A stretch of 64,000 nucleotides of DNA from Oscillospiraceae bacterium. Lineage in GTDB: Bacteria > Bacillota > Clostridia > Oscillospirales > Oscillospiraceae. Location of the stretch: assembly GCA_017541995.1 (NCBI GenBank), contig JAFXYD010000070.1, positions 508-64,507 on the forward strand, in the 5' to 3' direction. A program made the translations under genes and the position numbers. Numbering within the stretch: position 1 is the stretch's first letter; the number at the start of each line of letters is the position of its first letter. Under the pieces are notes generated by a model, which saw only the letters and a program-made list of their open reading frames with translations, made no database searches and was not told the DNA's origin. Positions 1,942 through 62,648 of the stretch are shown one piece after another.

Positions 1942-3144
1942 GTGGCAAAAAGAAGAGCAGCCGGAGAAGGCAACATCCGCAAACGGAAGGATGGACGCTG
2001 GGAAGGGCGCTACACCGCAGGGCATGATCCCGATACCGGCAAGGCCATCGTCAAGAATGTGCTGGGCAAGACCCAGGCGGAGGTAAAACAGAAGCTGAAG
2101 GAAGCGATTGCGGTCAGCGAGAAGCTGGACATTCCGCGCTCCGGGAAGTACACCCTTGGAGCCTGGATCACCCAATGGTTCGAAGTCTACTCCAAGCCGA
2201 ATCTCCGCCCCAGCACAGCCCGGTATTATAAAATGTTCATCGACCAGCATGTGGTTCCGAAGCTGGGGAGCGTCAAGCTCTCGGAGCTGCGGCCTATGCA
2301 AATCCAGAAGTTCTATAACGATCTGCGCACCGGCGGACGGGTGCGGGAGGTGCAGAAGGAAAAGAACCCAGGCTTAAGCGGTTCCTACATCCGTGGGATT
2401 CATACCATGCTCCATACTTGCCTGGATGCGGCTGTGCAGGAGAAGCTGATTCTCTCCAATCCTGTGAATGATTGCAAGCCGCCCAAGATCGAGCGGAAAG
2501 AAATGAAAACCTTAGAGCCGGAGCAGGTACAGGCCTATCTGAAAGCAGCGGACGCCAGAGGTTTGCTTCCCATGTTCTTCCTGGAGCTGACCACCGGCCT
2601 GCGAAAGAGTGAATTGGTAGCCCTGCTCTGGACCGATGTGAACTGGAAGGACCGGACCCTATCCGTCAGCAAGCAGGCCTATAAGATCGACGGAAAGATG
2701 ACGGTGATGCCGCCAAAGACCGGAAACTCCACCCGGAAGATTGCCCTGTCGGAGGAGCTGTTGGACATGCTCCGACAGCAGAAAGCGGCCTTCCCGGAAA
2801 GCGAATATATCTTCAGCTCACCGGTTACCGGCGAAATGTATCATCCCGATTCTGTGGTGAACCTCCATAAGAAGATCCTAAAAGAAGCGGGCCTGGAGCA
2901 CATTCGCTTCCATGATCTCCGCCACACCTTCGCAACGCTGGCCTTACAGAACGGCGTGGACGTGAAAACCGTCTCCGCCATGCTGGGCCACAGCAGCGCG
3001 GGCTTCACCCTGGCCACCTACACCCACACCACCACCGCAGCCCAGCACCAGGCAGCGGCCATCATGGGAAATCTGGTCAGCACAGGCATCCAGGAGCCGA
3101 CAGAAGCAGAGCCCGCAATCCGAATCGTGGGAGACGCGGGATGA
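1942..3144 (+). CDS. tyrosine-type site-specific integrase
   Basis: C-terminal catalytic region IRFHDLRHTFATLALQNGVDVKTVSAMLGHSSAGFTLATYTH (HxxR ... Y), N-terminal SAM-like domain, GTG start, adjacent to a tRNA gene. Confidence 0.9.
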   Translation: MAKRRAAGEGNIRKRKDGRWEGRYTAGHDPDTGKAIVKNVLGKTQAEVKQKLKEAIAVSEKLDIPRSGKYTLGAWITQWFEVYSKPNLRPSTARYYKMFIDQHVVPKLGSVKLSELRPMQIQKFYNDLRTGGRVREVQKEKNPGLSGSYIRGIHTMLHTCLDAAVQEKLILSNPVNDCKPPKIERKEMKTLEPEQVQAYLKAADARGLLPMFFLELTTGLRKSELVALLWTDVNWKDRTLSVSKQAYKIDGKMTVMPPKTGNSTRKIALSEELLDMLRQQKAAFPESEYIFSSPVTGEMYHPDSVVNLHKKILKEAGLEHIRFHDLRHTFATLALQNGVDVKTVSAMLGHSSAGFTLATYTHTTTAAQHQAAAIMGNLVSTGIQEPTEAEPAIRIVGDAG

Positions 3145-37217: not shown

Positions 37218-37231
37218 ATGTTCCTCCATCA

Positions 37232-37335
37232 GTTGAAAATTGAAAATGGAAAATTGAAAGCTTTCGGAGTTTTTCAGATCGCGATCTGAAAAACACATTC
37301 ATTTTCAATTTTCAACTTTTCATTTTCAATTTTTT
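37232..37335. repeat. heptamer-armed hairpin element (TTGAAAA type), copy 1; fills the whole trxB/PPase spacer
   Basis: Left arm GTTGAAAATTGAAAATGGAAAATTGAAAG, inner palindrome GTTTTTCAGATCGCGATCTGAAAAAC, right arm CATTTTCAATTTTCAACTTTTCATTTTCAATTTTTT. Confidence 0.9.
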
Positions 37336-38950
37336 AGCCCCACAGGGCGGACAGCATGGGAATAACCTGCTTCTTCCGGCTCATGACCCCGGGGAGGAAG
37401 AGGGTATTCCCCTGGGGCTCCACGCCGAAGGCCTGGGCGATGTCGTCGGCGTTGCCCAGGAAGATGATCTGGGTGCCCTCCAGCAGCACGTCGGTGAGCA
37501 TCAGAATCATGATGTTGTAGCCCTTTTCCCCGGTGGCCTTCTCCATTTCCGCCAGGAATTCCGCCTTGCGCTTGAGGATGGAGACGGAGTCCACGCAGGT
37601 GATCTGTCCCACCCCCAGATAGTGGCCGGCGATGTGGAAGTCCTTGAAGTCCGTGTAGAGCAGCTGCGCCGCGGTCTTGTTCTCTCCCAGGGAGGCGGCG
37701 AAGATGAACTTCCCCAGCTCCTCCAGATCCAGGCCCGCAATGCGGGCCAGCCGCTCGGCAATGGTCCGGTCCCGGAGCGTGGACGTGGGAGACTTGAAGA
37801 TGACGGTGTCGGAGAGAATGGCGGCGCACATGAGCCCGGCCATCTTCCTGGAGGGCATCAGGCCCTTTTCCTGGTACATCTCCGCCACAATGGTGGTGGT
37901 GCTGCCGATGATCTCGTTGCGGAAGAAGATGGGGTTGGCGGATTGAATGTCCGCCAGCCGGTGGTGGTCGATGATGCCCAGCAGCTCCACCTGGTCCAGA
38001 CCCGGCACGGACTGGGCCGCCTCGTTGTGATCCACCAGCACCACCTTCTTGCGGCGGGGCTTGAGCAGATGGTAGCGGGACAGGGTCCCCACCACCTTTT
38101 CTTGGGCGTCCAGGATGGGGTAGCAGCGGTAGCGGCTCTTGGAGACCACTTCCTTCACGTCGTCGAGGTAGTCCGTCAGATGGAAGGTCACCAGATCCTC
38201 GGACTGGCAGATCCGGGCGATGGGAATGGCCTGGAAGATCAGCCGGGCCGCCCGGAAGGCGGAGAAGGGGGTGGTGATGATGCAGGTCCGGGTCTCCAGC
38301 GCCCGCAGTTCCGGGCTCAGCTCCGCCTCGCAGAGGATCAGAGCGTGGATGTTGGACTCCAGGGCCCAGCGGATCACCTGGGGCTGGTTGCCGCAGACGG
38401 CGATGTAGTTCTCGTGGTCAAAGAGCAGCTGCTCCGAGCTCTTGGGCAGGCCGAAGATCACCTCGCCGGAGATGCTGTCCGCGACGGAGCCGGCCTCGTT
38501 CAGCACCCGGCCCTCCAGCACGGAGAGCAGGTTGAAGAGGGGGATGTCCTCCACCACCGGGTTCTCGATGGTCTGCATGTCGTAGTCCGCCACGTCTCCG
38601 GAGGAGAGCATGCCGAAGAGGGTGCCGTCCTCCTTGGTGACGGGGATGGCGGCGATGTTGGCGTCGTTGCGGAGAATGTTCCAGCCCCGGCCCACGGTGA
38701 GGGCCGCGCTGAGAGCGGGGGGCGTGTCGTAGTCCAGATCCAGCACCTGGGTCCGCATGTCCTTGATGAGCACCGGGGGCTCAAAGCCGAAGCGCTCCAG
38801 AATGCGTTTGCTCTCGTCGTTGAGGTGGCCCAGCCGGGCGGCGGTGTAGCCCCGTTCCCCCAGGGCGTTCCGCAGGGCGGTGTAGCTCATGGCCGATACG
38901 ATGGAATCCGTGTCCGGGTTCCGGTGGCCTGTCACAAAAACCTGTTCCAT
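37334..38950 (-). CDS. family II (DHH) manganese-dependent inorganic pyrophosphatase with CBS/DRTGG insert
   Basis: VTGHRNPDTDSIVSA, VDHNE, DHHR, C-terminal DHHA2. CBS-like internal region. 538 aa. Confidence 0.8.
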   Translation of the reverse strand: MEQVFVTGHRNPDTDSIVSAMSYTALRNALGERGYTAARLGHLNDESKRILERFGFEPPVLIKDMRTQVLDLDYDTPPALSAALTVGRGWNILRNDANIAAIPVTKEDGTLFGMLSSGDVADYDMQTIENPVVEDIPLFNLLSVLEGRVLNEAGSVADSISGEVIFGLPKSSEQLLFDHENYIAVCGNQPQVIRWALESNIHALILCEAELSPELRALETRTCIITTPFSAFRAARLIFQAIPIARICQSEDLVTFHLTDYLDDVKEVVSKSRYRCYPILDAQEKVVGTLSRYHLLKPRRKKVVLVDHNEAAQSVPGLDQVELLGIIDHHRLADIQSANPIFFRNEIIGSTTTIVAEMYQEKGLMPSRKMAGLMCAAILSDTVIFKSPTSTLRDRTIAERLARIAGLDLEELGKFIFAASLGENKTAAQLLYTDFKDFHIAGHYLGVGQITCVDSVSILKRKAEFLAEMEKATGEKGYNIMILMLTDVLLEGTQIIFLGNADDIAQAFGVEPQGNTLFLPGVMSRKKQVIPMLSALWG

Positions 38951-39365: not shown

Positions 39366-39394
39366 TTGACAAATACCCCTTGGGGGTATATAAT
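39366..39394 (+). promoter_or_regulatory. csoR-copA promoter with CsoR-type operator in the spacer
   Basis: TTGACA, 17 nt, TATAAT. The spacer holds the GC-rich pseudo-palindrome ATACCCCTTGGGGGTAT. Confidence 0.75.
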
Positions 39395-39437: not shown

Positions 39438-39740
39438 ATGGACGAGAAAAGCTGCTGCCGGAAAAAAGCCGTGCCCCGGTCCGAGGCGGAGCGCAGGCGG
39501 CTGATCCACCGGCTTAACCGCATGGAGGGACAGATCCGGGGCATCCGGGGCATGGTGGAGAACGACGTCTACTGCAACGACGTGCTGGTCCAGTGCTCCG
39601 CGGTGAACGCGGCCCTGCGGGCCTTTGAGCGGGAGCTGCTGGCCTCCCACGTCCGCTCCTGCGTGGCGGAGGAGCTCCGGGCCGGGAAGGACGAGGTGGT
39701 GGACGAGCTCGTTGAGACCCTAAATAAAATGATGAAGTAA
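39438..39740 (+). CDS. csoR: copper-sensing metal-sensitive transcriptional repressor CsoR
   Basis: RLNRMEGQIRGIRGMVENDVYCNDVLVQCSAV (C-H-C ligand pattern), 100 aa, directly upstream of copA. Confidence 0.85.
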   Translation: MDEKSCCRKKAVPRSEAERRRLIHRLNRMEGQIRGIRGMVENDVYCNDVLVQCSAVNAALRAFERELLASHVRSCVAEELRAGKDEVVDELVETLNKMMK

Positions 39741-41223
39741 AGGAATCGGGTGATTGGATGAAACAATATAACGTAACGGGCATGAGCTGCGCCGCCTGCT
39801 CGGCCCGGGTGGAAAAGGCGGTGAAGGGGGTTCCCGGGGTGGAATCCTGCGCCGTGAGCCTGCTGACGAATTCCATGGGCGTGGAGGGCAGCGCCGATCC
39901 CGCCGCCGTCATCGCCGCCGTCACCGAGGCGGGCTACGGGGCCTCCCTGAAGGGGGCCGCCGACGGCGCCCGGAGCGTCCCCCAGGCCGCCGACGCCCTG
40001 GCGGACACCGAGACCCCCAGGCTGAAAAAGCGCCTGCTCTGGTCCCTGGGCTTTCTGCTGGTTTTGATGTATTTCTCCATGGGCCATATGATGTGGGGCT
40101 TCCCCCTGCCCAAATGGTTCGAGGGAAACCACGTGGCCATGGGCCTGGTCCAGCTGCTGCTGGCGGCCGTCATCATGGTAATCAACCAGCGCTTCTTCAT
40201 CTCCGGCTTCAAGGCCCTGCTGCACCGGGCCCCCAACATGGACACCCTGGTGGCCATGGGCTCCGGGGTCTCCTTCCTCTGGTCGGTCTGGGTGCTCTTT
40301 GCCATGACCCGGGCCCAGCTGGACGGGGACGCCGCCGCGGTGGAGGGCTATATGATGGAGTTCTACTTCGAGTCCGCCGCCATGATTCTGACGCTGATCA
40401 CCGTGGGCAAGCTGCTGGAGGCCCGGTCCAAGGGCAAAACCACCGACGCCCTCAAGGGGCTGATGAAGCTGGCCCCCCAGACCGCCGTGGTGCTGCGAAA
40501 CGGCGTGGAGACCACGGTGCCCGTGGCCCAGGTGCAAAAGGACGATCTGTTCGTGGTGCGGCCCGGGGAGGCCATCCCCGTGGACGGGGTGGTGGTAGAG
40601 GGCAGCTCCGCCGTCAACGAGGCCGCCCTCACCGGGGAGTCCATCCCCGTGGACAAGGCCCCCGGGGACCTGCTCTCCGCCGCCACGGTGAACCAGTCCG
40701 GCTTCCTGAAGGCCCGGGCCACCCGGGTGGGGGAGGACACCACCCTCTCCCAGATCATCAAAATGGTCTCCGACGCCGCCGCCACCAAGGCCCCCATCGC
40801 CAAGGCCGCCGACAAGATCTCCGGGATCTTTGTCCCTGTGGTCCAGGCCATCGCCCTGGCGGTGACGGGGATCTGGCTGCTGGCGGGGCAGGACTTCTCC
40901 TACGCCCTGGGCCGGGGCATCTCCGTGCTGGTGATCTCCTGTCCCTGCGCCCTGGGTCTGGCGACCCCCGTGGCCATTATGGTGGGCAACGGCGTGGGGG
41001 CCAAAAACGGCATTCTTTTCAAAACCGCCGTCTCCCTGGAGCAGACCGGCAAGGTGAAGATCGTGGCCCTGGACAAGACCGGCACCATCACCACCGGCCA
41101 GCCCGCCGTGACGGACATCCTGCCCGCCCCCGGCGTCAGCCAGGCGGAGCTCCTGGCCGCCGCCGTGGCCCTGGAGGAAAAGAGCGAGCATCCCCTGGCG
41201 AAGGCGATTGTGGGATATGCCGA

Positions 41224-41272
41224 GGGATCGGGGATCAGGGACCAGGGATCAGGGATCAGGGATCGAGGATTG
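41224..41272. repeat. heptanucleotide tract (GGGATCR) x 6-7 inside copA
   Basis: GGGATCG GGGATCA GGGACCA GGGATCA GGGATCA GGGATCG AGGATTG. Confidence 0.9.
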
Positions 41273-41393
41273 CAGAACTGAGCGACTTCCGGGCTCTGCC
41301 GGGGAACGGGCTGGAGGCCCTGCTGGAGGGCAGGCCTCTCATAGGCGGCTCGGTGAAATTCATCACGGAGCGGCTCCGGGCGGCAGGGGATAC

Positions 41394-41463
41394 GGGCCCT
41401 TCGGCTCCGCTGCGCTCCGCTCAGGACGACAAACCCGAAGCCGTTTCCCCCGTCCTTCGGGCC
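41394..41463. repeat. repeat module sharing a 26-nt identical core with the rluB insertion
   Basis: CTCCGCTGCGCTCCGCTCAGGACGAC at 41405-41430 is identical to 47713-47738. Translated in frame as PSAPLRSAQDD. Confidence 0.85.
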
Positions 41464-42099
41464 AAGGCCGACGAGCTGGCCGCCCAGGGCAAGACCCCCC
41501 TGCTCTTTGCCCACGGGGATCGGCTGCTGGGCCTCATCGCCGTGGCGGACGTCATCAAGCCCGAGAGCCCCGCAGCGGTGAAAGAGTTACAGAATATGGG
41601 CGTTAGAGTTGTTATGTTAACCGGCGACAACGAGCGCACCGCCCAGGCCATTGCCGCCCAGGCGGGGGTGGACGAGGTGGTGGCAGGCGTCCTGCCCGAG
41701 GGCAAGGAGGCCGTGATCCGGGAGCTGCAAAGCCGCGGCCCCGTCCTCATGGTGGGCGACGGCATCAACGACGCCCCGGCCCTGACCCGGGCGGACGTGG
41801 GCAGGGCCATCGGCGCGGGGGCCGACGTGGCCATCGACGCCGCCGACGTGGTGCTGATGAAGAGCAAGCTCAGCGACGTGCCCGCGGCCCTGCGGCTGAG
41901 CCGGGCCACCCTGCGGAATATCCACGAAAACCTCTTCTGGGCCTTCCTCTACAACAGCATCGGCATCCCCCTGGCGGCGGGGGCCTTCGTCAAGGCCTTC
42001 GGCTGGACCATGAACCCCATGTTCGGGGCCGCCGCCATGAGCCTGTCCAGCTTCTGCGTGGTGACCAACGCCCTGCGGCTGAATTTCGTGAAGCTGCAT

Positions 42100-42152
42100 A
42101 AAAGCCTTCCCCTTGAGGGGAAGGTGGCCCCGCAGGGGCCGGATGAGGTGGC
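42100..42152. repeat. R7-type double-hairpin repeat translated in frame between the CopA core and the C-terminal HMA domain
   Basis: AAAAGCCTTCCCCTTGAGGGGAAGGTG + GGCCCCGCAGGGGCC + GGATGAGGTGGC. Reverse-complement homologue of 5562-5625. Confidence 0.85.
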
Positions 42153-42384
42153 TCCCCCGGAAGAGAGCGGCATCGTGATCCAGGTTAAGGGCATGATGTG
42201 CCACAACTGCGAGCGCCACGTGCAGGAGGCCCTGGAGGCCCTGCCCGGGGTGGAGTCCGCCCGGGCGGATTTCCGGACTGGCCTGGTGGAGCTCCGGGGC
42301 GCCGCCTCCGAGGCGGAGCTCAGGCAGGCCGTCAAAGGCGCGGGGTACAAGTTCCGGAAAATCGTGGGCTGAGGCCGACAAATC

Positions 42385-42568
42385 AATGAAAATATGAAAC
42401 TATGAAAAAATGAAAATATTATGGTATTTTCCATATCTTCGATATGGAAAATGGTATTTCAAATCGTCCCGAAGGGACACCGAAATAGTTTCATAATTTC
42501 ATATTTTCATAGTTTCATTCTCCCCGTCAAATCCCGATTTGCACATTTTTGCGCAAATCGGGATTACG
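42385..42568. repeat. heptamer-armed hairpin element (ATGAAAA/TGAAACT type) followed by a CAAATCCCGATTTGC inverted repeat
   Basis: Arms 42385-42420 and 42484-42519 are imperfect reverse complements. Inner hairpins ATTTTCCATAT/ATATGGAAAAT and GTCCC-GAA-GGGAC. Then CAAATCCCGATTTGC...GCAAATCGGGATT. Confidence 0.85.
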
Positions 42569-47042: not shown

Positions 47043-47957
47043 ATGAAAGAACGACTGCAAAAGCTCATCGCCGCCGCGGGGCTCTGCTCCCGGCGGACGG
47101 CGGAGGAATGGATCATCCAGGGCAAGGTCACCGTGGACGGGGACCTTGCCCGGCTTGGCGATACGGCGGACCCGGAGCGGAACGAGATTCTGGTGGAGGG
47201 CCGCCCTCTGCCCGCCGCCCCGGCCAAAACCACCACCGTTCTGCTGAACAAGCCCCGGGGGGTGGTCACCACCCTCTCCGACGAGAAGGGCCGCCCCACC
47301 GTGGCCCGGCTGCTGCCCCCGGAGCTGGGGCGGCTCTACCCCGTGGGCCGTCTGGACCAGTTCTCCGAGGGCCTGCTGCTGATGACCAACGACGGCGAGC
47401 TGGCAAACCGCCTGACCCACCCGGCGGGGGAGGTCCGCAAGACCTACCGCCTCTGGGTCTCCGGCTGGCATGAGGAGGCCCTGGCCCTGCTCCGGCGGCC
47501 CATCGAGCTGGACGGGTATCGGATCAAGCCGCCGGAGGTGCGGCTGGTGTGGGTGCGTCAGGCAACAGGCAACAGGCAACAGGCAACTGGGGACGCACCC
47601 GTCCGTAGCGGCGAGCATTGCTCGCCACAGGAACCCCGCTCCGATGAGGCAACAGGGCAGGGAATCGGGAATCGGGAATCGGGAATCGGGGACGCGGGAA
47701 CGGGTCCTTCGACTCCGCTGCGCTCCGCTCAGGACGACGGATCCGAAACGAGGGCGCACATAGCCACCGCCCTGCTGGAGATCACCATCCACGAGGGGCG
47801 GAATCGGCAGATCCGCCGCATGGCCCAGGCCGCAGGCCTCACCCCCACCCGCCTCCAGCGCGTGGCTGAGGGCCCCATTACCCTGGGGGATCTGAAGCCC
47901 GGCCAGTGGCGGGAGCTGAGCGAAGCGGAGCTTCGGGAATTGAGAATTGAGAATTGA
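47043..47957 (+). CDS. rluB: RluB-like rRNA pseudouridine synthase (S4 domain + RsuA/RluB catalytic domain) carrying a ~65-aa repeat-encoded insertion and a repeat-encoded C-terminus
   Basis: S4 domain RLQKLIAAAGLCSRRTAEEWI. Catalytic GRLDQFSEGLLLMTNDG. HEGRNRQIRRM. Last residues RELRIEN* lie in the GAGAATT array. Confidence 0.8.
   Translation: MKERLQKLIAAAGLCSRRTAEEWIIQGKVTVDGDLARLGDTADPERNEILVEGRPLPAAPAKTTTVLLNKPRGVVTTLSDEKGRPTVARLLPPELGRLYPVGRLDQFSEGLLLMTNDGELANRLTHPAGEVRKTYRLWVSGWHEEALALLRRPIELDGYRIKPPEVRLVWVRQATGNRQQATGDAPVRSGEHCSPQEPRSDEATGQGIGNRESGIGDAGTGPSTPLRSAQDDGSETRAHIATALLEITIHEGRNRQIRRMAQAAGLTPTRLQRVAEGPITLGDLKPGQWRELSEAELRELRIEN
47556..47760. repeat. composite insertion of four repeat modules inside rluB
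   Basis: (GCAACAG)x3+1 at 47562-47589. GTAGCGGCGAGCATTGCTCGCCAC hairpin. (GGGAATC)x4 at 47660-47687. 26-nt core at 47713-47738. Confidence 0.85.
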
Positions 47958-48007
47958 GAGTTGGAAACACCGATCATTCTCAATTCTCAACCCTCAATTC
48001 TCAATTC
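47936..48007. repeat. heptamer-armed hairpin (GAGAATT type) containing the rluB stop codon
   Basis: GGAATTGAGAATTGAGAATTGAGAG ... loop ... CTCAATTCTCAACCCTCAATTCTCAATTC. Confidence 0.9.
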
Positions 48008-48021
48008 AAAGGATAAGCGTT

Positions 48022-49368
48022 ATGAACGAATACGACGTAATCGTAATCGGCGGCGGGGCCGCCGGGATGTTTGCCGCCGTCCAGGCGGGCTACGCCGGGG
48101 CCAGGGTCCTGCTGCTGGAGCCCAACGAGCGCCTGGGCAAAAAACTGTATATTACGGGGAAGGGCCGCTGCAATCTCACCAACAACTGCTCCTGGCAGGA
48201 GGTGCTGAAAAACGTACCCACCAATCCCCGCTTTCTGTATTCCGCCCTGTCGGGCTTTACGCCGGAGGATACGATCAGCTTTTTTGAGTCCCACGGCTGC
48301 GAGACCAAGACGGAGCGGGGCAACCGGGTCTTTCCGGTGTCCGACAAGTCCGCCTCCGTGGTGGATGCCCTGAAGACCGCCCTGGGCTACGCCGGGGTGG
48401 AGATCCGCCGGGCAAGGGCGAAAGAGCTGCTCGTCGAAAACGGGCACATTTCCGGGGTCCGCACGGACAGGGGGGACTATTTTGCCCCGGCCGTGATCCT
48501 GGCGACGGGCGGCAAATCCTACCCCGCCACCGGCTCCACCGGGGACGGCTGCCGCATGGCGCAGGCCCTGGGCCACAGCATCGTGCCCCCCGTGGGCTCC
48601 CTGGTGCCCCTGGTGGAGGAGGGGGACTGCTGCGCCAAAATGCAGGGCCTGGCCCTGCGGAATATCAGCATTCGGCTGTATGAATGTACCGACGGGGCAA
48701 CAGGCAACAGGCAACAGGCAACAGATCCAGACTGTCATTCCGAGCGAAGCGAGGAATCCGTTTCCCCTTCCTCCGTCCCCTGTGCGACCCACGCCAAGCC
48801 CGTCTTTGAGGAATTCGGGGAGCTGCTCTTCACCCACTTCGGCCTCTCCGGGCCGGTGATCCTCTCCGCCTCGGCCCACATGGAAGCAGGGAAGGCGTAC
48901 ACGGTTGAGATCGACCTGAAGCCCGCCCTGGACGAGGCCACCCTGGACGCCCGGATCCTCCGGGACTTTGCCGCGGCCAAGAACCGCAGCTTCGAGAACG
49001 CCCTGTCGGGCCTCTACCCCAAGACCCTGATCCCCGTGATGGTGGCCCGCTCCGGCATCCCCGGCGACACTAAGGTGAACGCCGTCACCAGGGAGCAGCG
49101 CCGGGCCCTTCTGGAGCTCACCAAGCACTTCACCGTGGCAATCCGGGGCAAGCGCCCCGTGGAGGAGGCCATCGTCACCTCCGGCGGCGTTTCCGTGAAG
49201 GAGATCGACCCGAAAACCATGGAAAGCAAGCTGGTCCCCGGCCTCTACTTCGCCGGGGAAGTCATGGACGTGGACGCCTACACCGGCGGCTTCAACCTGC
49301 AAATCGCCTGGAGTACGGGCTACGCCGCCGCCCAGGCCGCTGTAAAAGGAACAGGTAATAAGGAATAA
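48022..49368 (+). CDS. HI0933/YhiN-like NAD(P)/FAD-dependent oxidoreductase with a repeat-encoded internal insertion
   Basis: YDVIVIGGGAAGMFAA, ITGKGRCNLTN, LFTHFGLSGP, C-terminal YFAGEVMDVDAYTGGFNLQ. Start at ATG 48022, because the listed extension is repeat-encoded. Confidence 0.8.
   Translation: MNEYDVIVIGGGAAGMFAAVQAGYAGARVLLLEPNERLGKKLYITGKGRCNLTNNCSWQEVLKNVPTNPRFLYSALSGFTPEDTISFFESHGCETKTERGNRVFPVSDKSASVVDALKTALGYAGVEIRRARAKELLVENGHISGVRTDRGDYFAPAVILATGGKSYPATGSTGDGCRMAQALGHSIVPPVGSLVPLVEEGDCCAKMQGLALRNISIRLYECTDGATGNRQQATDPDCHSERSEESVSPSSVPCATHAKPVFEEFGELLFTHFGLSGPVILSASAHMEAGKAYTVEIDLKPALDEATLDARILRDFAAAKNRSFENALSGLYPKTLIPVMVARSGIPGDTKVNAVTREQRRALLELTKHFTVAIRGKRPVEEAIVTSGGVSVKEIDPKTMESKLVPGLYFAGEVMDVDAYTGGFNLQIAWSTGYAAAQAAVKGTGNKE
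48694..48795. repeat. (GCAACAG)x4 plus GTCATTCCGAGCGAAGCGAGGAATC hairpin module, in frame inside the oxidoreductase gene
   Basis: Perfect units at 48697-48724. Translated GATGNRQQATDPDCHSERSEESVSP. Confidence 0.85.
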
Positions 49369-49405
49369 GGATAATTCTCAACTCTCAATTCTCAATTCTC
49401 AATTC
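49347..49405. repeat. two abutting heptamer arrays (degenerate AGGAATA x4, then TTCTCAA x4) spanning the oxidoreductase stop codon
   Basis: AGGAACA GGTAATA AGGAATA AGGATAA TTCTCAA CTCTCAA TTCTCAA TTCTCAA. TAA stop at 49366-49368. Confidence 0.85.
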
Positions 49406-49421: not shown

Positions 49422-50108
49422 ATGGACAAGTTTATTTCCGTCGCCATTGACGGGCCTGCCGGGGCGGGGAAGAGCACCATCGCCCGGCGGGTGGCCCGGG
49501 AGCTGGGCTATCTCTACGTGGACACCGGGGCCATCTACCGCACCGTGGGCTACCACATGAGCCTCATGGGCATCGGCCCCAAGGACAGGGACGGCATCGA
49601 GCGCTGCATCGACGATGTGAATATCCAAATTGACTACCAGGACGACGGGATTCAGCACATGATCCTCAACGGCCAGGACGTGACGGAGCTGATCCGAACC
49701 CCGGAAATGTCCAAAATGGCCTCCGGGGTGGCGGCCCAGAGCTGCGTCCGGGACTACCTGCTGGACATGCAGCGCAGCCTGGCCCGTACCCACAACGTGG
49801 TAATGGACGGCCGGGACATCGGCACCGTGGTGCTGCCCCAGGCCACCGTCAAGGTCTTCCTCACCGCCTCCGCCGAGGTCCGGGCGGACCGCCGCTTCAA
49901 GGAGCTGACGGCCAAGGGGGAGCAGGTCAAATACGAGGACGTGTACGTCGACATTGTCAAGCGGGATGAACAGGACATGAACCGGAAGATCGCCCCTCTG
50001 AAGTGCGCCGACGACGCGGAGGTTCTGGACTGCTCCCAGCTGAGCATCGACCAGGTGGTGGCGGAGATGAAGGCCATCATCCGAAAGAAGGCGAGCAGCC
50101 ATGAATGA
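49422..50108 (+). CDS. cmk: (d)CMP kinase
   Basis: ISVAIDGPAGAGKSTIARRVARELGYLYVDTGAIYR. Confidence 0.9.
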   Translation: MDKFISVAIDGPAGAGKSTIARRVARELGYLYVDTGAIYRTVGYHMSLMGIGPKDRDGIERCIDDVNIQIDYQDDGIQHMILNGQDVTELIRTPEMSKMASGVAAQSCVRDYLLDMQRSLARTHNVVMDGRDIGTVVLPQATVKVFLTASAEVRADRRFKELTAKGEQVKYEDVYVDIVKRDEQDMNRKIAPLKCADDAEVLDCSQLSIDQVVAEMKAIIRKKASSHE

Positions 50109-50814
50109 GGCAACAGGCAACAGGCAACAGGCAACAGAGACCGTAGGGGCGGCCATTGGCCGTCCGCCCGAGGCAGCCGGGAAGAAGCCGAAGAAGAAGG
50201 AATACGGCAACGGCTTTGCCGTCCGATACATCTATCCCATTCTCTGGTGGATTCTGCGGATTGTCCTGTCTCTGTACCATTGGTCCAGCTTCCGGGGCCG
50301 GGAGAATCTGCCGGAGGGACCCTGCGTGATCTGCGCCAACCACTCCGGCTTCGCGGATCCGCTTTGGGTCTTCCTGCTGATGAAGACCCGGATGCCGCCC
50401 TGGACCATGGCCCGGAAGAGCCTCTTTGAGAAGCCGATCTTCGGCCGCTTTCTGGCGGCCTTTCGGGCCTTCCCGGTGGACCGGGACCACGCGGACATGG
50501 CCGCCGTCAAGAAATCCCTCTCCGTGCTGAAGAACGGGGAGAAGCTGCTGATCTTCCCAGAGGGAACCCGGGTGAAGAAGGGCAAGAAGTCCGAGCCCAA
50601 GTCCGGGGCGGTGCTCCTGGCCCAGCGGGCCGGGGTGCCCTTGGTGCCGGTGTACATCACCCACGGCCGCAAGCCCTTCCAGCCCATCCGGGTCATCATG
50701 GGCGAGGCCTACACCCCCGCCTACTCCTCCCGCCGCCCCGACTCCGAGGAGTTGGAGCGGCACACGGCGGAGCTGATGGAACGCATTTACGAGATGGGGG
50801 AAGCATCGAAATGA
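50101..50814 (+). CDS. plsC: 1-acyl-sn-glycerol-3-phosphate acyltransferase with repeat-encoded N-terminal extension
   Basis: ICANHSGFADP (NHxxxxD) and FPEGTR. The only in-frame start is ATG 50101 (ATGAATGA overlap with cmk), so the repeat is translated. Confidence 0.8.
   Translation: MNEATGNRQQATETVGAAIGRPPEAAGKKPKKKEYGNGFAVRYIYPILWWILRIVLSLYHWSSFRGRENLPEGPCVICANHSGFADPLWVFLLMKTRMPPWTMARKSLFEKPIFGRFLAAFRAFPVDRDHADMAAVKKSLSVLKNGEKLLIFPEGTRVKKGKKSEPKSGAVLLAQRAGVPLVPVYITHGRKPFQPIRVIMGEAYTPAYSSRRPDSEELERHTAELMERIYEMGEASK
50110..50172. repeat. (GCAACAG)x4 plus CCGTAGGGGC-type hairpin at the 5' end of plsC
   Basis: Perfect units at 50110-50137, then GACCGTAGGGGCGGCCATTGGCCGTCCGCCC. Confidence 0.85.
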
Positions 50815-58537: not shown

Positions 58538-59902
58538 ATGGCATTTGAAGGACTAAGCGAAAAACTCTCCAACGCCTTCCAAAAGCTGCGGAGCAAGGGA
58601 CGGCTGACCCCCAACGACGTGAAGGAGGCCATGCGGGAGATCCGCCTGGCCCTGCTGGAGGCCGACGTCAGCTATAAGGTCGTCAAGGACTTCATCAAGG
58701 TCGTCACGGAGCGCTGCGTGGGCGCCGACGTGCTGGAGGGCCTGAACCCCGCTCAGATGGTGGTGAAGGTGGTCAACGAGGAGCTCACCGCCATGATGGG
58801 CGGCGAGAACCAGAAGATCAACATGGCCTCCAACGGCCCCACCGTGGTGATGCTGGTGGGCCTGCAGGGCGCGGGCAAAACCACCAACGGCGCCAAGCTG
58901 GCCGGGTACTTCAAAAAGACCCAGAGCAAGCGGCCCCTGCTGGTGGCCTGCGACGTCTATCGCCCCGCCGCCATCAAGCAGCTGGAGGTGGTGGGCGGCC
59001 AGCTGGACATCCCGGTCTTCCAGATGGGCCAGGACGATCCCGTGAAGATCGCCCGGGAAGGACTGCGCCACGCCCAGCAGCACGGCAACGACATGGTCTT
59101 CCTGGACACCGCGGGCCGTCTGCACATCGACGAGAAGCTCATGGAGGAGCTCCAGGCCATCAAGGCCGAGGTCAAGCCCAACGAGATCCTGCTGGTGGTG
59201 GACGCCATGACCGGCCAGGACGCGGTGAACGCGGCCCAGAGCTTCAACGAGTGGCTGGACGTGGACGGCGTCATGCTCTCCAAGCTGGACGGCGACGCCC
59301 GGGGCGGCGCGGCCCTGTCCGTCAAGGCCGTCACCGGCAAGCCCATCAAGTTCATCGGCGTGGGCGAGAAGCTGGATCAGATCGAGCCCTTCCACCCCGG
59401 CCGTATGGCGGGGCGGATCCTGGGCATGGGCGACGTGCTGAGCCTCATCGAAAAGGCGGAGCAGGCCATCGACCAGAAGAAGGCCGCCGAGCTGGAGGAA
59501 CGGCTGCGGCAGAACAAATTCACCCTGACGGACTTCCTGGATCAGCTGAGCCAGCTGAAGAACATGGGGAATTTGCAGGATCTGATGGGCATGATCCCCG
59601 GCATGGGCAGCATGAAGGACCTGCAGGTGGACGAAAAGGCCCTGGGTCGGGTGGAGGCCATCATCCGCTCCATGACCCCCCAGGAGCGGGAGAACCCCGG
59701 CATCCTGGGCTCCAGCCGGAAAAAGCGCATCGCCGCGGGCTCCGGCACCCGGGTAGAGGACGTAAACAAGCTGCTCAAGCAGTTCCAGACCATGCAGCAG
59801 ATGATGAAGCAGTTCTCCGGCAAGGCCGCCGGAAAGAAGCTGAAAAAGCTGCAAAGACGGGGCGGCTTCCCAGGCATGGGCGGCTTCCCGGGCATTGGAT
59901 GA
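58538..59902 (+). CDS. ffh: signal recognition particle protein Ffh
   Basis: GLQGAGKTT, DTAGR, Met-rich M domain, C-terminal GGFPGMGG. Confidence 0.95.
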   Translation: MAFEGLSEKLSNAFQKLRSKGRLTPNDVKEAMREIRLALLEADVSYKVVKDFIKVVTERCVGADVLEGLNPAQMVVKVVNEELTAMMGGENQKINMASNGPTVVMLVGLQGAGKTTNGAKLAGYFKKTQSKRPLLVACDVYRPAAIKQLEVVGGQLDIPVFQMGQDDPVKIAREGLRHAQQHGNDMVFLDTAGRLHIDEKLMEELQAIKAEVKPNEILLVVDAMTGQDAVNAAQSFNEWLDVDGVMLSKLDGDARGGAALSVKAVTGKPIKFIGVGEKLDQIEPFHPGRMAGRILGMGDVLSLIEKAEQAIDQKKAAELEERLRQNKFTLTDFLDQLSQLKNMGNLQDLMGMIPGMGSMKDLQVDEKALGRVEAIIRSMTPQERENPGILGSSRKKRIAAGSGTRVEDVNKLLKQFQTMQQMMKQFSGKAAGKKLKKLQRRGGFPGMGGFPGIG

Positions 59903-60068
59903 GTTGAAAATTGAAAATTGAAAGTTGAAAGTTTCGGAATCGTTCAAATTGCCATTTGAACGATGAAAAAGAAAGATTCGACTTTCAATTCGCAGATCAT
60001 TCCTGTTTTTCAGATGGCAATCTGAAAAACACCCCCATTTTCAATTTTCACCTTTCAACTTTCAATTC
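59903..60068. repeat. heptamer-armed hairpin element (TTGAAAA type), copy 2, starting right after the ffh stop
   Basis: Shares arms, TTTCGGA and TTTTTCAGAT-N4-ATCTGAAAAACAC with 37232-37335. Carries about 65 extra nt, including the hairpin ATCGTTCAAA-TTGCCA-TTTGAACGAT. Confidence 0.9.
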
Positions 60069-60131
60069 GACCCGCACAGGGTTTCGATAAAAACAAAAAC
60101 AAATTATATTATCAAACAAGGAGATATCACC

Positions 60132-61972: not shown

Positions 61973-62648
61973 GGCCCAACGCATCGTCTTCTTCGGTGGG
62001 GCCGGGGTCTCCACCGAGAGCGGCATTCCCGACTTCCGCTCTGTGGACGGCCTCTACAATCAGAAATTCAAGTACCCTCCCGAGACCATCATCTCCCACA
62101 GCTTCTTTGAGGAGCGGCCCGAGGAGTTCTTCGCGTTCTACAAGGAGAAGATGCTGCCCCTGGGCTTTGAGCCCAACGTGACCCACAAGGTCCTGGCCCG
62201 CTGGGAGCGGGAGGGGAAGCTCCTGGCCGTGGTCACCCAGAACATCGACGGCCTCCACCAGAAGGCCGGCAGCAAAAACGTCCTGGAGCTCCACGGCTCC
62301 GTGCTGCGGAACTACTGCGTCCGCTGCCATCGGAGCTACTCCGCGGAGTTCGTGAAGAACAGCAAGGGCGTGCCCCGCTGCGACTGCGGCGGCGTGGTCA
62401 AGCCCGACGTGGTGCTCTATGAGGAGAGCCTGGACCAGGACGTGATGTACCGGGCCACCCGGGCCATCTCCCAGGCGGATATGCTCATCGTGGCCGGCAC
62501 CTCTCTGACGGTCTGGCCCGCGGCGGGCATGATCCGCTATTACCGGGGAAGCCGCCTGGTGCTGATCAACCGGGACGAGACCCCCTTTGACCGCGAGGCG
62601 GATCTGGTGCTCCACGAGAAATTGGGGGAGGTTTTCCGGGAGCTGTGA
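61932..62648 (+). CDS. NAD-dependent protein deacylase (Sir2 family)
   Basis: FFGGAGVSTESGIPDFRS, QNIDGLH, zinc ribbon CVRC...CDCGG. GGAGGAAG RBS. Confidence 0.85.
   Translation: MNSKLDTLKTWVDEAQRIVFFGGAGVSTESGIPDFRSVDGLYNQKFKYPPETIISHSFFEERPEEFFAFYKEKMLPLGFEPNVTHKVLARWEREGKLLAVVTQNIDGLHQKAGSKNVLELHGSVLRNYCVRCHRSYSAEFVKNSKGVPRCDCGGVVKPDVVLYEESLDQDVMYRATRAISQADMLIVAGTSLTVWPAAGMIRYYRGSRLVLINRDETPFDREADLVLHEKLGEVFREL

Follow-up and report, generated by a model that had tools for sequence, protein, structure and literature searches.

What breaks the reading frame of copA, the gene for a copper-exporting P1B ATPase, in the Oscillospiraceae bacterium represented by contig JAFXYD010000070.1? Within the 64,000-nt stretch of this contig that we analyzed (in the following called the window), the two parts of copA lie in different frames on either side of a tandem array of heptanucleotides. 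The preliminary description of the locus offered three options: a slipped-strand switch, a pseudogene or an assembly indel. From the analysis presented here, we consider it probable that copA was inactivated recently and only in the sampled strain, as a by-product of the period-7 arrays that populate this genome and not as part of a dedicated copper switch. There is good support for the loss of one repeat unit as the cause of the break. The disrupted gene consists of the following features:

39758 to 41281, plus strand: 5′ part of copA in frame 2, 507 codons followed by a TGA at 41279-41281

41224 to 41272, plus strand: heptanucleotide tract in copA, six GGGATCR units plus a degenerate AGGATTG

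41266 to 42372, plus strand: 3′ part of copA in frame 1, with RIAELSDFRALPGNG, MLTGDN and GDGINDAP in this order and its stop at 42372

On re-reading the sequence and its open reading frames (ORFs), we found the tract position, the frames and the TGA to be as described before. The units start at 41224 (GGGATCG), 41231 (GGGATCA), 41238 (GGGACCA), 41245 (GGGATCA), 41252 (GGGATCA), 41259 (GGGATCG) and 41266 (AGGATTG); the tract is not pure, being interrupted by GGGACCA and by G/A variation. Tandem Repeats Finder (TRF) assigned it a period of 7, 6.0 copies, 88% matches and a score of 70. It lies mid-gene, at a relative position of 0.57 (57%), and the 507-aa product of the 5′ ORF ends in ‘...AIVGYAEGSGIRDQGSGIRDRGLQN’, also given as ‘...SEHPLAKAIVGYAEGSGIRDQGSGIRDRGLQN’. 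When the number of units was edited in silico, a single ORF resulted only from the removal of five (859 aa) or two units (866 aa) or the addition of one (873 aa). The earlier arithmetic, by which one unit more or two units fewer restore one ORF, was thus right, and a loss of five units works too. All three sense frames of (GGGATCA)n are free of stops and encode the cyclic peptide GSGIRDQ. Because 7 and 3 are coprime and every sense frame yields this same stop-free peptide, a slip alters only the sequence downstream of the tract.

A search with the repaired protein identified P0001, which has 873 amino acids, contains ‘...GYAEGSGIRDQGSGIRDQGSRIAELSDF...’ and is exactly the allele predicted for one additional unit. 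P0001 is present on seven contigs and a one-residue variant, P0121, on an eighth, with identities of 99.9–100%. All eight of these other same-species contigs encode an intact 873-aa CopA; when tract length was compared among strains, as the preliminary description had proposed, we counted seven units in 8/8 of them and six in the window alone. Four of the contigs were retrieved (L081–L084), all of them encoding P0001. Against these four near-identical loci, the loss of one unit is the only indel in copA. A break by exactly one repeat unit is thus supported; a dedicated switch is not.

We extended the comparison to a set of 21 loci of the same species from about ten metagenome samples, which covers 63,916 of the 64,000 nt (215 kb aligned, up to 8-fold). 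Two indels are all that this alignment contains, one of −7 nt (41243) and one of −14 nt (49383), and both comprise whole units of heptamer arrays. The window is without one of the three consecutive GGGATCA units common to all other genomes of the species, which shows, at the level of the assembled genomes, an apparent loss of one of three identical units in the sampled one. L081, aligned over 22,622 nt, differs from the window at just four sites, the −7 nt in copA, position 41804, the −14 nt at 49383 and a single-nucleotide polymorphism (SNP) at 49616. Together with 60051, these are the five sites at which the window differs from every other genome; 49616 is a synonymous SNP in cmk and 60051 a substitution within an ATTTTCA array. 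The arrays make up 523 nt (0.8% of the window), yet hold three of these five window-specific changes. With no further indel in the whole 64 kb, the assembly appears to be accurate at the indel level.

The second window-specific change within copA lies in its 3′ part:

41804, plus strand: window-specific G (T in the other four loci), changing ATG to AGG and Met to Arg in the P-domain motif ADVG-x-AIGAG

In the seven-unit protein, this substitution would be Met685Arg. In 115 homologs, the corresponding column contains I86/V18/M8/L3, and R in none. A change from Met to Arg at an invariant I/V/M/L column therefore fits a gene released from selection better than a gene that is toggling. It also qualifies the earlier statement that the operator, promoter and both halves of copA otherwise look intact: the sequence of the promoter and operator is the same as in the in-frame strains, but the 3′ half carries this substitution. 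The accompanying argument against old decay holds, and we judge the decay to be recent. A quasi-palindrome (template-switch) origin of the window SNPs was ruled out by an inverted-repeat test at the three sites. With G at 41804, the best inverted repeat grows from 7 to 8 nt; however, an arm of at least 7 nt results from 12% of random substitutions. The window allele at 60051 breaks an 18-nt perfect inverted repeat, and 49616 has no inverted-repeat effect.

Exact look-ups among 15 billion protein sequences gave no match to the 507-aa product of the window, nor to the modelled 4-, 5-, 6-, 8-, 9- and 10-unit products. Likewise, a homology search for the 113-aa out-of-frame tail of the 5- or 8-unit alleles found none among 5.8 billion cluster representatives.

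The intact same-species allele P0001 is a member of the copper ATPase families, scoring 576 against TIGR01511 (curated cut-off 397) and 603 against TIGR01525 (cut-off 346). The two fragments of the window span profile positions 1–312 and 318–560 of the 560 positions of TIGR01525; the split caused by the tract therefore falls midway through the nucleotide-binding domain (N-domain) of the enzyme. Alone, the 5′ fragment stays below the TIGR01511 cut-off (348 vs 397). It comprises the N-terminal HMA domain, transmembrane helices, the A-domain (E1-E2_ATPase) and the start of the Hydrolase domain, with the motifs GMSCAACS (the CxxC of the HMA domain), LTGES, SCPCALG, LDKTGTIT and SEHPL. The rest of the N-domain, MLTGDN, GDGINDAP, the last two transmembrane helices, a linker and a C-terminal HMA domain (GMMCHNCE) are encoded by the 3′ part. 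The signature motifs of a P1B-1 CopA are thus all found, divided between the two parts, and the best PDB matches are Cu-ATPases (HMA4 8q73, Archaeoglobus fulgidus CopA 3j09, Legionella pneumophila CopA 3rfu and ATP7B). As the ORF stops after 507 codons and the domains are not in one frame, the copA of the window is a disrupted member of this family.

Upstream of copA, the control region contains:

39366 to 39394, plus strand: sigma-70-type csoR-copA promoter, TTGACA, 17 nt, TATAAT (12/12 matches)

39373 to 39389, no strand assigned: palindrome ATACCCC-TTG-GGGGTAT between −35 and −10, a putative CsoR-type operator

39438 to 39740, plus strand: csoR-family gene for a copper-sensing repressor, 100 aa (PF02583 Trns_repr_metal, E=4.5e-27)

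We found eight promoter-like sites against 0.6 expected, and the csoR-copA promoter is the only perfect one. The palindrome is probably a CsoR-type operator, judging from its position, its GC-rich dyad, the adjacent CsoR-family gene and what is known of CsoR (PMC7558416). The csoR-family gene is called at 100 aa in L081–L084 as well.

How the tract arose can be followed in relatives of decreasing similarity. A scan of metagenome DNA with the left flank returned one contig, L085, from a 95% sister lineage, with five degenerate units in frame; among the genome loci listed as matches, the nearest is L001 (91% identical). In L001, the segment from SEHPL to PGNG is 92 nt long and contains a single GGGATCA, in the codons GAG GGA TCA (Glu-Gly-Ser). 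The same segment measures 113 nt (+21) with five decaying units in L085 (CopA 95% identical), 134 nt (+42) with seven units in the same-species L081 and 127 nt (+35) with six units, out of frame, in the window. This series of 92, 113 and 134 nt, beginning from the L001 seed, indicates growth in place, with surviving alleles that differ by multiples of three units. The compared genomes thus show that the tract arose from one GGGATCA seed through tandem duplications, in frame-keeping steps of 21 nt. For copA, an origin by insertion of a mobile element was ruled out, since the seed is already present in the tract-less L001 and the lengths differ by multiples of 21 nt. Two proteins of another lineage, P0029 and P0032, show a length difference of exactly 7 aa in the same loop repeat.

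The affected loop appears to tolerate such changes. Measured from SEHPLA to F.ALPGNG, it has 33 residues in 76 of 121 orthologs, and 24–128 residues within the clade of the window, where it contains GSGIRDQ and ATGNRQQ repeats as well as VGAAIGRPP-like, VCHSERSEES-like and GPSxPxRSAQDD-like modules. An AlphaFold2 model of P0001 (mean predicted local distance difference test score, pLDDT, of 73.6) places the insert, residues 497–506 with pLDDT <50, between a confident helix (479–490) and a confident strand (511–516). Residues 548–562 and 785–805, which correspond to other lineage-specific modules, are low-confidence coils with pLDDT <50 as well. The expansions that survived are multiples of three units (21 nt), since each such step puts no more than a harmless 7-aa repeat (GSGIRDQ) into a surface loop of the N-domain that is disordered.

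Besides the tract, copA contains two further lineage-specific modules:

41394 to 41430, plus strand: second module, ‘GPSAPLRSAQDD’, not in P0002 and P0004

42103 to 42168, plus strand: third module, the linker ‘SLPLEGKVAPQGPDEVAPPEES’ before the C-terminal HMA domain, with the hairpin CCTTCCCCTCAAGGGGAAGG

The 26-mer CTCCGCTGCGCTCCGCTCAGGACGAC (‘PLRSAQDD’) occurs exactly at 41405–41430 in copA and at 47713–47738 in the gene for a pseudouridine synthase, two unrelated genes. The ‘PLRSAQDD’ module is found in other CopA orthologs too, at times in another frame (‘FDSAALRSGRQ’). In the linker before the C-terminal HMA domain, P0002 and P0122 (L085 2842–2870) have unrelated versions, ‘SLPLEGKVAPQGPDEV...’ and ‘EGNGQQATGNRFPRGGDSD...’, the latter with an AGGCAAC array. 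Two unrelated versions of this linker in close strains indicate mosaic exchange of loop modules.

The copA tract is one of many. Among periods of 4–15, we found ten arrays of at least three copies at period 7 in the window and none at any other period; 20 dinucleotide-preserving shuffles of the window produced no period-7 array of at least three copies. TRF reported 16 period-7 arrays, 13 of which have 3.4–4.7 copies, all within 37233–60687 and none in 1–37000. Their unit families are AGGCAAC (four loci), AATTGAG/TCTCAAT, TTGAAAA/TTTTCAA, GGGAATC (4.4 copies at 47660) and GGGATCR. In this small sample, 6/6 G-rich arrays (GGGATCR, GGGAATC and AGGCAAC) are located within genes, in the sense orientation; they lie in copA, scpB, the pseudouridine synthase gene (two arrays), the gene for an HI0933-like flavoprotein and an acyltransferase gene. 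The AT-rich arrays adjoin stop or start codons, often in inverted pairs, and no fewer than two of them represent copies of a single composite element. A repeat comparison within the window detected no shared similarity in the flanks of the four AGGCAAC arrays.

A census over 1.5 Mb of loci gave 26 period-7 arrays, compared with at most three for each of the periods 5, 6, 8 and 9. In 80 loci from other species (GTDB representatives with CopA identities of 62–91%, ~1.3 Mb), there was one period-7 array; strong arrays therefore hardly occur outside this species and its closest relatives (L085). Decayed 7-aa repeats in 12 of 121 CopA orthologs indicate, however, that the process is older. The copA tract contains six G3+ runs (G3N3–4 ×6) and is capable of forming a G-quadruplex (G4), and the minimum free energy structure from ViennaRNA includes a three-layer G4. 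The fold containing it (−23.9) is no more stable than those of composition-matched shuffles (−25.3 ± 4.7); we therefore dropped the G4 as a distinguishing property and keep it as a possibility only.

Several arrays are parts of larger composites. Directly after the copA stop lies one such element:

42381 to 42518, no strand assigned: AT-rich inverted pair of 8-mer arrays (ATGAAAAT / ATAGTTTC), TRF period 8 with 4.2 copies each

Its 36-nt arms are 83% complementary and 53 nt apart. Composite intergenic elements with inverted heptamer- or octamer-array arms are found at 37228–37338 and 59899–60074, and a like architecture at 47935–48013 and at 42381–42518. Two copies have a common internal hairpin, GTTTTTCAGAT..ATCTGAAAAAC, with 86% identity. 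The elements are located directly 3′ of the stop codons of copA, ffh and the pseudouridine synthase gene and may be terminators or resemble miniature inverted-repeat transposable elements (MITE-like). The pseudouridine synthase gene itself contains an in-frame composite insert of ~190 nt (47559–47750), composed of AGGCAAC ×4 with the inverted 7-mers GTGCGTC/GACGCAC on its flanks, the GTAG-led palindrome GTAGCGGCGAGCATTGCTCGCC, GGGAATC ×4.4 and the 26-mer, in this order. At 48696–48760, in the gene for the HI0933-like flavoprotein, AGGCAAC ×4 is followed by CATTCCGAGCGAAGCGAGGAATC (‘IPSEARN’; compare ‘VCHSERSEES’ in CopA orthologs), and at 50108–50170, at the N-terminus of the acyltransferase, by GTAGGGGCGGCCATTGGCCGTCCGCC (‘VGAAIGRPP’). 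With their GTAG-plus-palindrome form, these modules may resemble repetitive extragenic palindromic (REP) elements.

The comparison within the species yielded some further observations. The TCTCAAT array at 49373–49405, 17 nt 5′ of the cmk start codon, has two units fewer than in three other genomes, which could change the 5′ untranslated region or the spacing of the ribosome-binding site of cmk. L088 has ~46 substitutions in a patch of ~600 nt at window positions 61997–62576 (~8–9% diverged) and is near-identical elsewhere; this patch indicates homologous recombination with a diverged donor. Beyond 32231, contig L089 leaves the gene order of the window (glycosyltransferase and IstB/DnaB-like genes), which suggests a structural variant or an inserted element. 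The 5′ end of the window adjoins an integrase (1942–3144) and a MobL-type mobile element.

These results suggest the following course of events. In this species, the tract normally has seven units, and copA encodes an uninterrupted copper-exporting P1B ATPase of 873 aa from a promoter that is presumably controlled by CsoR. The tract was then shortened by one unit, for which slipped-strand mispairing in replicating DNA is the most probable mechanism. Translation would shift and stop after residue 507, which predicts a null allele: the product would end within the N-domain and would have neither TGDN and GDGINDAP nor the last two membrane helices nor the C-terminal metal-binding domain. The frame would return with one additional unit or with two further losses, so that the knockout would be reversible in principle. 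The Met to Arg change is a second, independent lesion of the gene and probably damaging too. Changes in 2/16 arrays vs 3/64,000 sites correspond to a roughly ~2,700-fold higher rate per array than per site (n=2). As a very rough estimate, this resembles an ordinary unstable microsatellite and not a tuned contingency locus; such a ratio is well below the norm for contingency loci.

Some observations weigh against this explanation. The six-unit state is that of the assembly and may not be the true or majority state of the organism. Both array changes of the window are contractions, the direction also expected if repeats collapse during assembly. The other ~10 samples have no array changes among themselves despite ~19 private SNPs, so that evidence of instability comes from a single lineage, with two events (n=2). 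Furthermore, the two window SNPs outside of arrays are located 561 nt (41804) and 233 nt (49616) 3′ of the array indels, which may point to recombination patches, or to events that are coupled, instead of independent slippage. The loss of function, finally, is a prediction from domain content.

Four other explanations have to be weighed against the recent inactivation of copA as a by-product of the arrays. The ON/OFF switch for copper efflux suggested in the preliminary description would be a selected, phase-variable contingency locus, at which populations keep producing copA-ON (7, 4 or 10 units) and copA-OFF cells. It would explain a unit length not divisible by 3 inside an ORF, a repeat that is stop-free in every sense frame, so that only the downstream frame changes, the intact promoter and operator, and the occurrence of ON (seven units, L081–L084) and OFF alleles (six units, window) in genomes that are 99.9–99.99% identical. 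There is also a heptanucleotide precedent in neuO, with full translation at repeat numbers divisible by 3 (PMC13001214). However, unit numbers are not spread, with seven in 8/8 other contigs and the 4-, 5-, 6-, 8-, 9- and 10-unit products unrecorded, and the out-of-frame tail is in no protein searched. The tract is interrupted and lies at 57% of the gene rather than at its 5′ end or in the promoter; its sister arrays are in housekeeping genes (scpB and those for the pseudouridine synthase, the HI0933-like flavoprotein and the acyltransferase), and the Met to Arg change argues that the distal half is not kept functional. We therefore regard such a locus as unlikely, and an adaptive copper switch is not supported. 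To an artefact of assembly or consensus, in which seven copA units and five TCTCAAT units (49383) were collapsed to six and three, we assign a similarly low probability. Both differences are indeed whole-unit contractions in perfect sub-runs, and the 6-unit product is in no other assembly. On the other hand, the lack of any further indel in 64 kb against up to 8-fold independent assemblies shows that this assembly is not indel-prone, the perfectly periodic stretches at the changed arrays are only ~28–35 nt long, presumably below any modern read or final k-mer, and a collapse cannot yield the independent T to G change at 41804 in copA.

An import by recombination, in which patches from a slightly diverged lineage with a copA pseudogene brought both the six-unit allele with Arg and, at 49383, the short array together with its SNP, would account for the position of a window SNP 3′ of each array indel and of none elsewhere outside arrays (chance ~0.001, calculated post hoc). 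Patchy recombination is known in the species, from the L088 patch and the swapped copA linker modules in sister strains. But no donor allele is on record, and the documented patch is ~8–9% diverged, compared with one SNP per proposed patch. The pairing of SNPs and indels can be read either as joint arrival in recombination patches or as array changes accompanied by nearby errors. Import seems rather improbable to us, and it would be a variant of the explanation that we prefer, with an allele that is still real and still derived from unit loss. Recoding, by which full-length CopA would be made through a −1 frameshift on the GGGG at 41230–41233, possibly stimulated by an RNA G4, or through transcriptional slippage, is the least credible of the four and has very little probability in our view. 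The downstream frame is indeed −1 relative to the upstream one, a P-site slip on G_GGG would give ‘...AEGSG-DQGPGIRDQGSRIAELSDF...’, the six G3+ runs and the predicted three-layer G4 are at hand, and RNA G4s in ORFs have been reported to trigger −1 frameshifts (as cited in PMC4692102). The copA gene of E. coli, moreover, is itself subject to programmed frameshifting, although at another site (as cited in PMC7558416). Yet there is only the GGGG run and no X_XXY_YYZ slippery heptamer, the G4 fold is no more stable than the shuffles, and the G4 would overlap the slip site instead of following it. All relatives are in frame, so there is no conserved frameshift signal.

The copA gene should be annotated as a frameshifted pseudogene in the sampled genome and as an intact gene in the species, and automated pipelines will face such changes in repeat units repeatedly in this clade. 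In the near-isogenic comparison, indels in this organism stem predominantly from heptanucleotide arrays. In housekeeping genes, where a slip by a single unit gives a null allele, they represent a standing mutational load, and they are a possible source of reversible loss-of-function variation in gut Clostridia, for instance in copper tolerance. A frameshift at an intragenic heptanucleotide simple sequence repeat (SSR) is of a known kind; the population of arrays and modules in conserved proteins is more interesting than the tract itself.

One may speculate, with a small probability of being right, that the loops of housekeeping proteins in uncultured Oscillospiraceae-like Clostridia are the target of an active process, specific to this lineage, which seeds 7-nt arrays and modules there and expands them; the copA tract would be the part of it that is visible here. 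If this were true, arrays would reach about four units whatever their sequence, and short GC-rich modules would enter surface loops and linkers, extending the CopA loop from 33 to up to 128 residues and placing the same modules in the pseudouridine synthase, the HI0933-like flavoprotein, ScpB and the acyltransferase. The arrays would be revertible knock-out points in ordinary genes, and array changes would bring nearby point mutations. Such a process would have a counterpart in the heptamer and small-dispersed-repeat elements of cyanobacteria, but would act within coding sequence and in a gut anaerobe.

Our literature searches turned up no description of such arrays in Oscillospiraceae and none of a copA frameshift caused by an SSR, but related systems are known. 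One is neuO of Escherichia coli K1, which encodes the O-acetyltransferase of prophage CUS-3 and contains 3–53 units of the heptanucleotide AAGACTC (PMC13001214). It is OFF in 66% of complete genomes, and mixtures of unit numbers can be measured within a single culture (PMC13001214). Both loci have a 7-nt tandem unit within the coding sequence, at which slippage shifts the frame, the unit number modulo 3 is decisive and each in-frame repeat corresponds to a 7-aa peptide. In contrast, the neuO repeat is 5′-terminal, whereas the copA tract is mid-gene, interrupted and OFF in the window only; moreover, neuO is a surface-modification gene and copA encodes a housekeeping metal pump.

A change of frame that truncates CopA is also known from the same gene family in E. 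coli, where programmed −1 frameshifting in copA leads to CopA(Z) (Meydan et al. 2017, as cited in PMC7558416). That shift is translational, conserved, located at about codon 70 and gives a useful chaperone. The shift in the window, by comparison, is a genomic indel at codon 493–507 that is found in no relative, and it yields a 507-aa membrane fragment with no evident function.

At the level of the array population, the arrays resemble those of Beggiatoaceae and cyanobacteria in being lineage-restricted, in having 2–6 copies near start or stop codons, in their occasional 7-aa read-through repeats and in being accompanied by very short dispersed modules. Elhai et al. 2008 (as cited in PMC3116915) reportedly described cyanobacterial heptamer arrays with nested small dispersed repeats. 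TAACTGA heptamer direct repeats occur in marine Beggiatoaceae, cyanobacteria and Bacteroidetes (PMC4679880). The unit sequences differ from those found here, where several families coexist and the intragenic copies are located in conserved enzymes, not in hypothetical proteins.

A genome-wide excess of heptameric long SSRs was described by Mrazek et al. 2007 (PNAS), as summarized in PMC4679880, and Rehm et al. 2015 reported GGGNATC G4 repeats in Xanthomonas and Nostoc that show G4 formation, a preference for four units and an under-representation in the sense strands of ORFs (PMC4692102). The arrays in the window share with these SSRs the dominance of period 7, the dispersed occurrence, the few unit families and the mostly ~4 units, and the GGGAATC unit of Xanthomonas itself is present at 47660. 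They differ from the GGGNATC class in that the G-rich arrays are all sense-strand and intragenic, and in that the copA unit GGGATCR has a G3+N4 layout with another loop and is not an exact GGGNATC. The preference for ~4 units is also seen here in AGGCAAC, AATTGAG and TTGAAAA arrays, which are unable to form G4s, and therefore the G4 cause suggested by Rehm et al. cannot explain all of it. The host, too, is a different one, and the known range of genome-wide heptamer SSRs (Xanthomonas, Burkholderia, cyanobacteria, Beggiatoaceae) is thereby extended to high-GC Clostridia of the Oscillospiraceae-like type.

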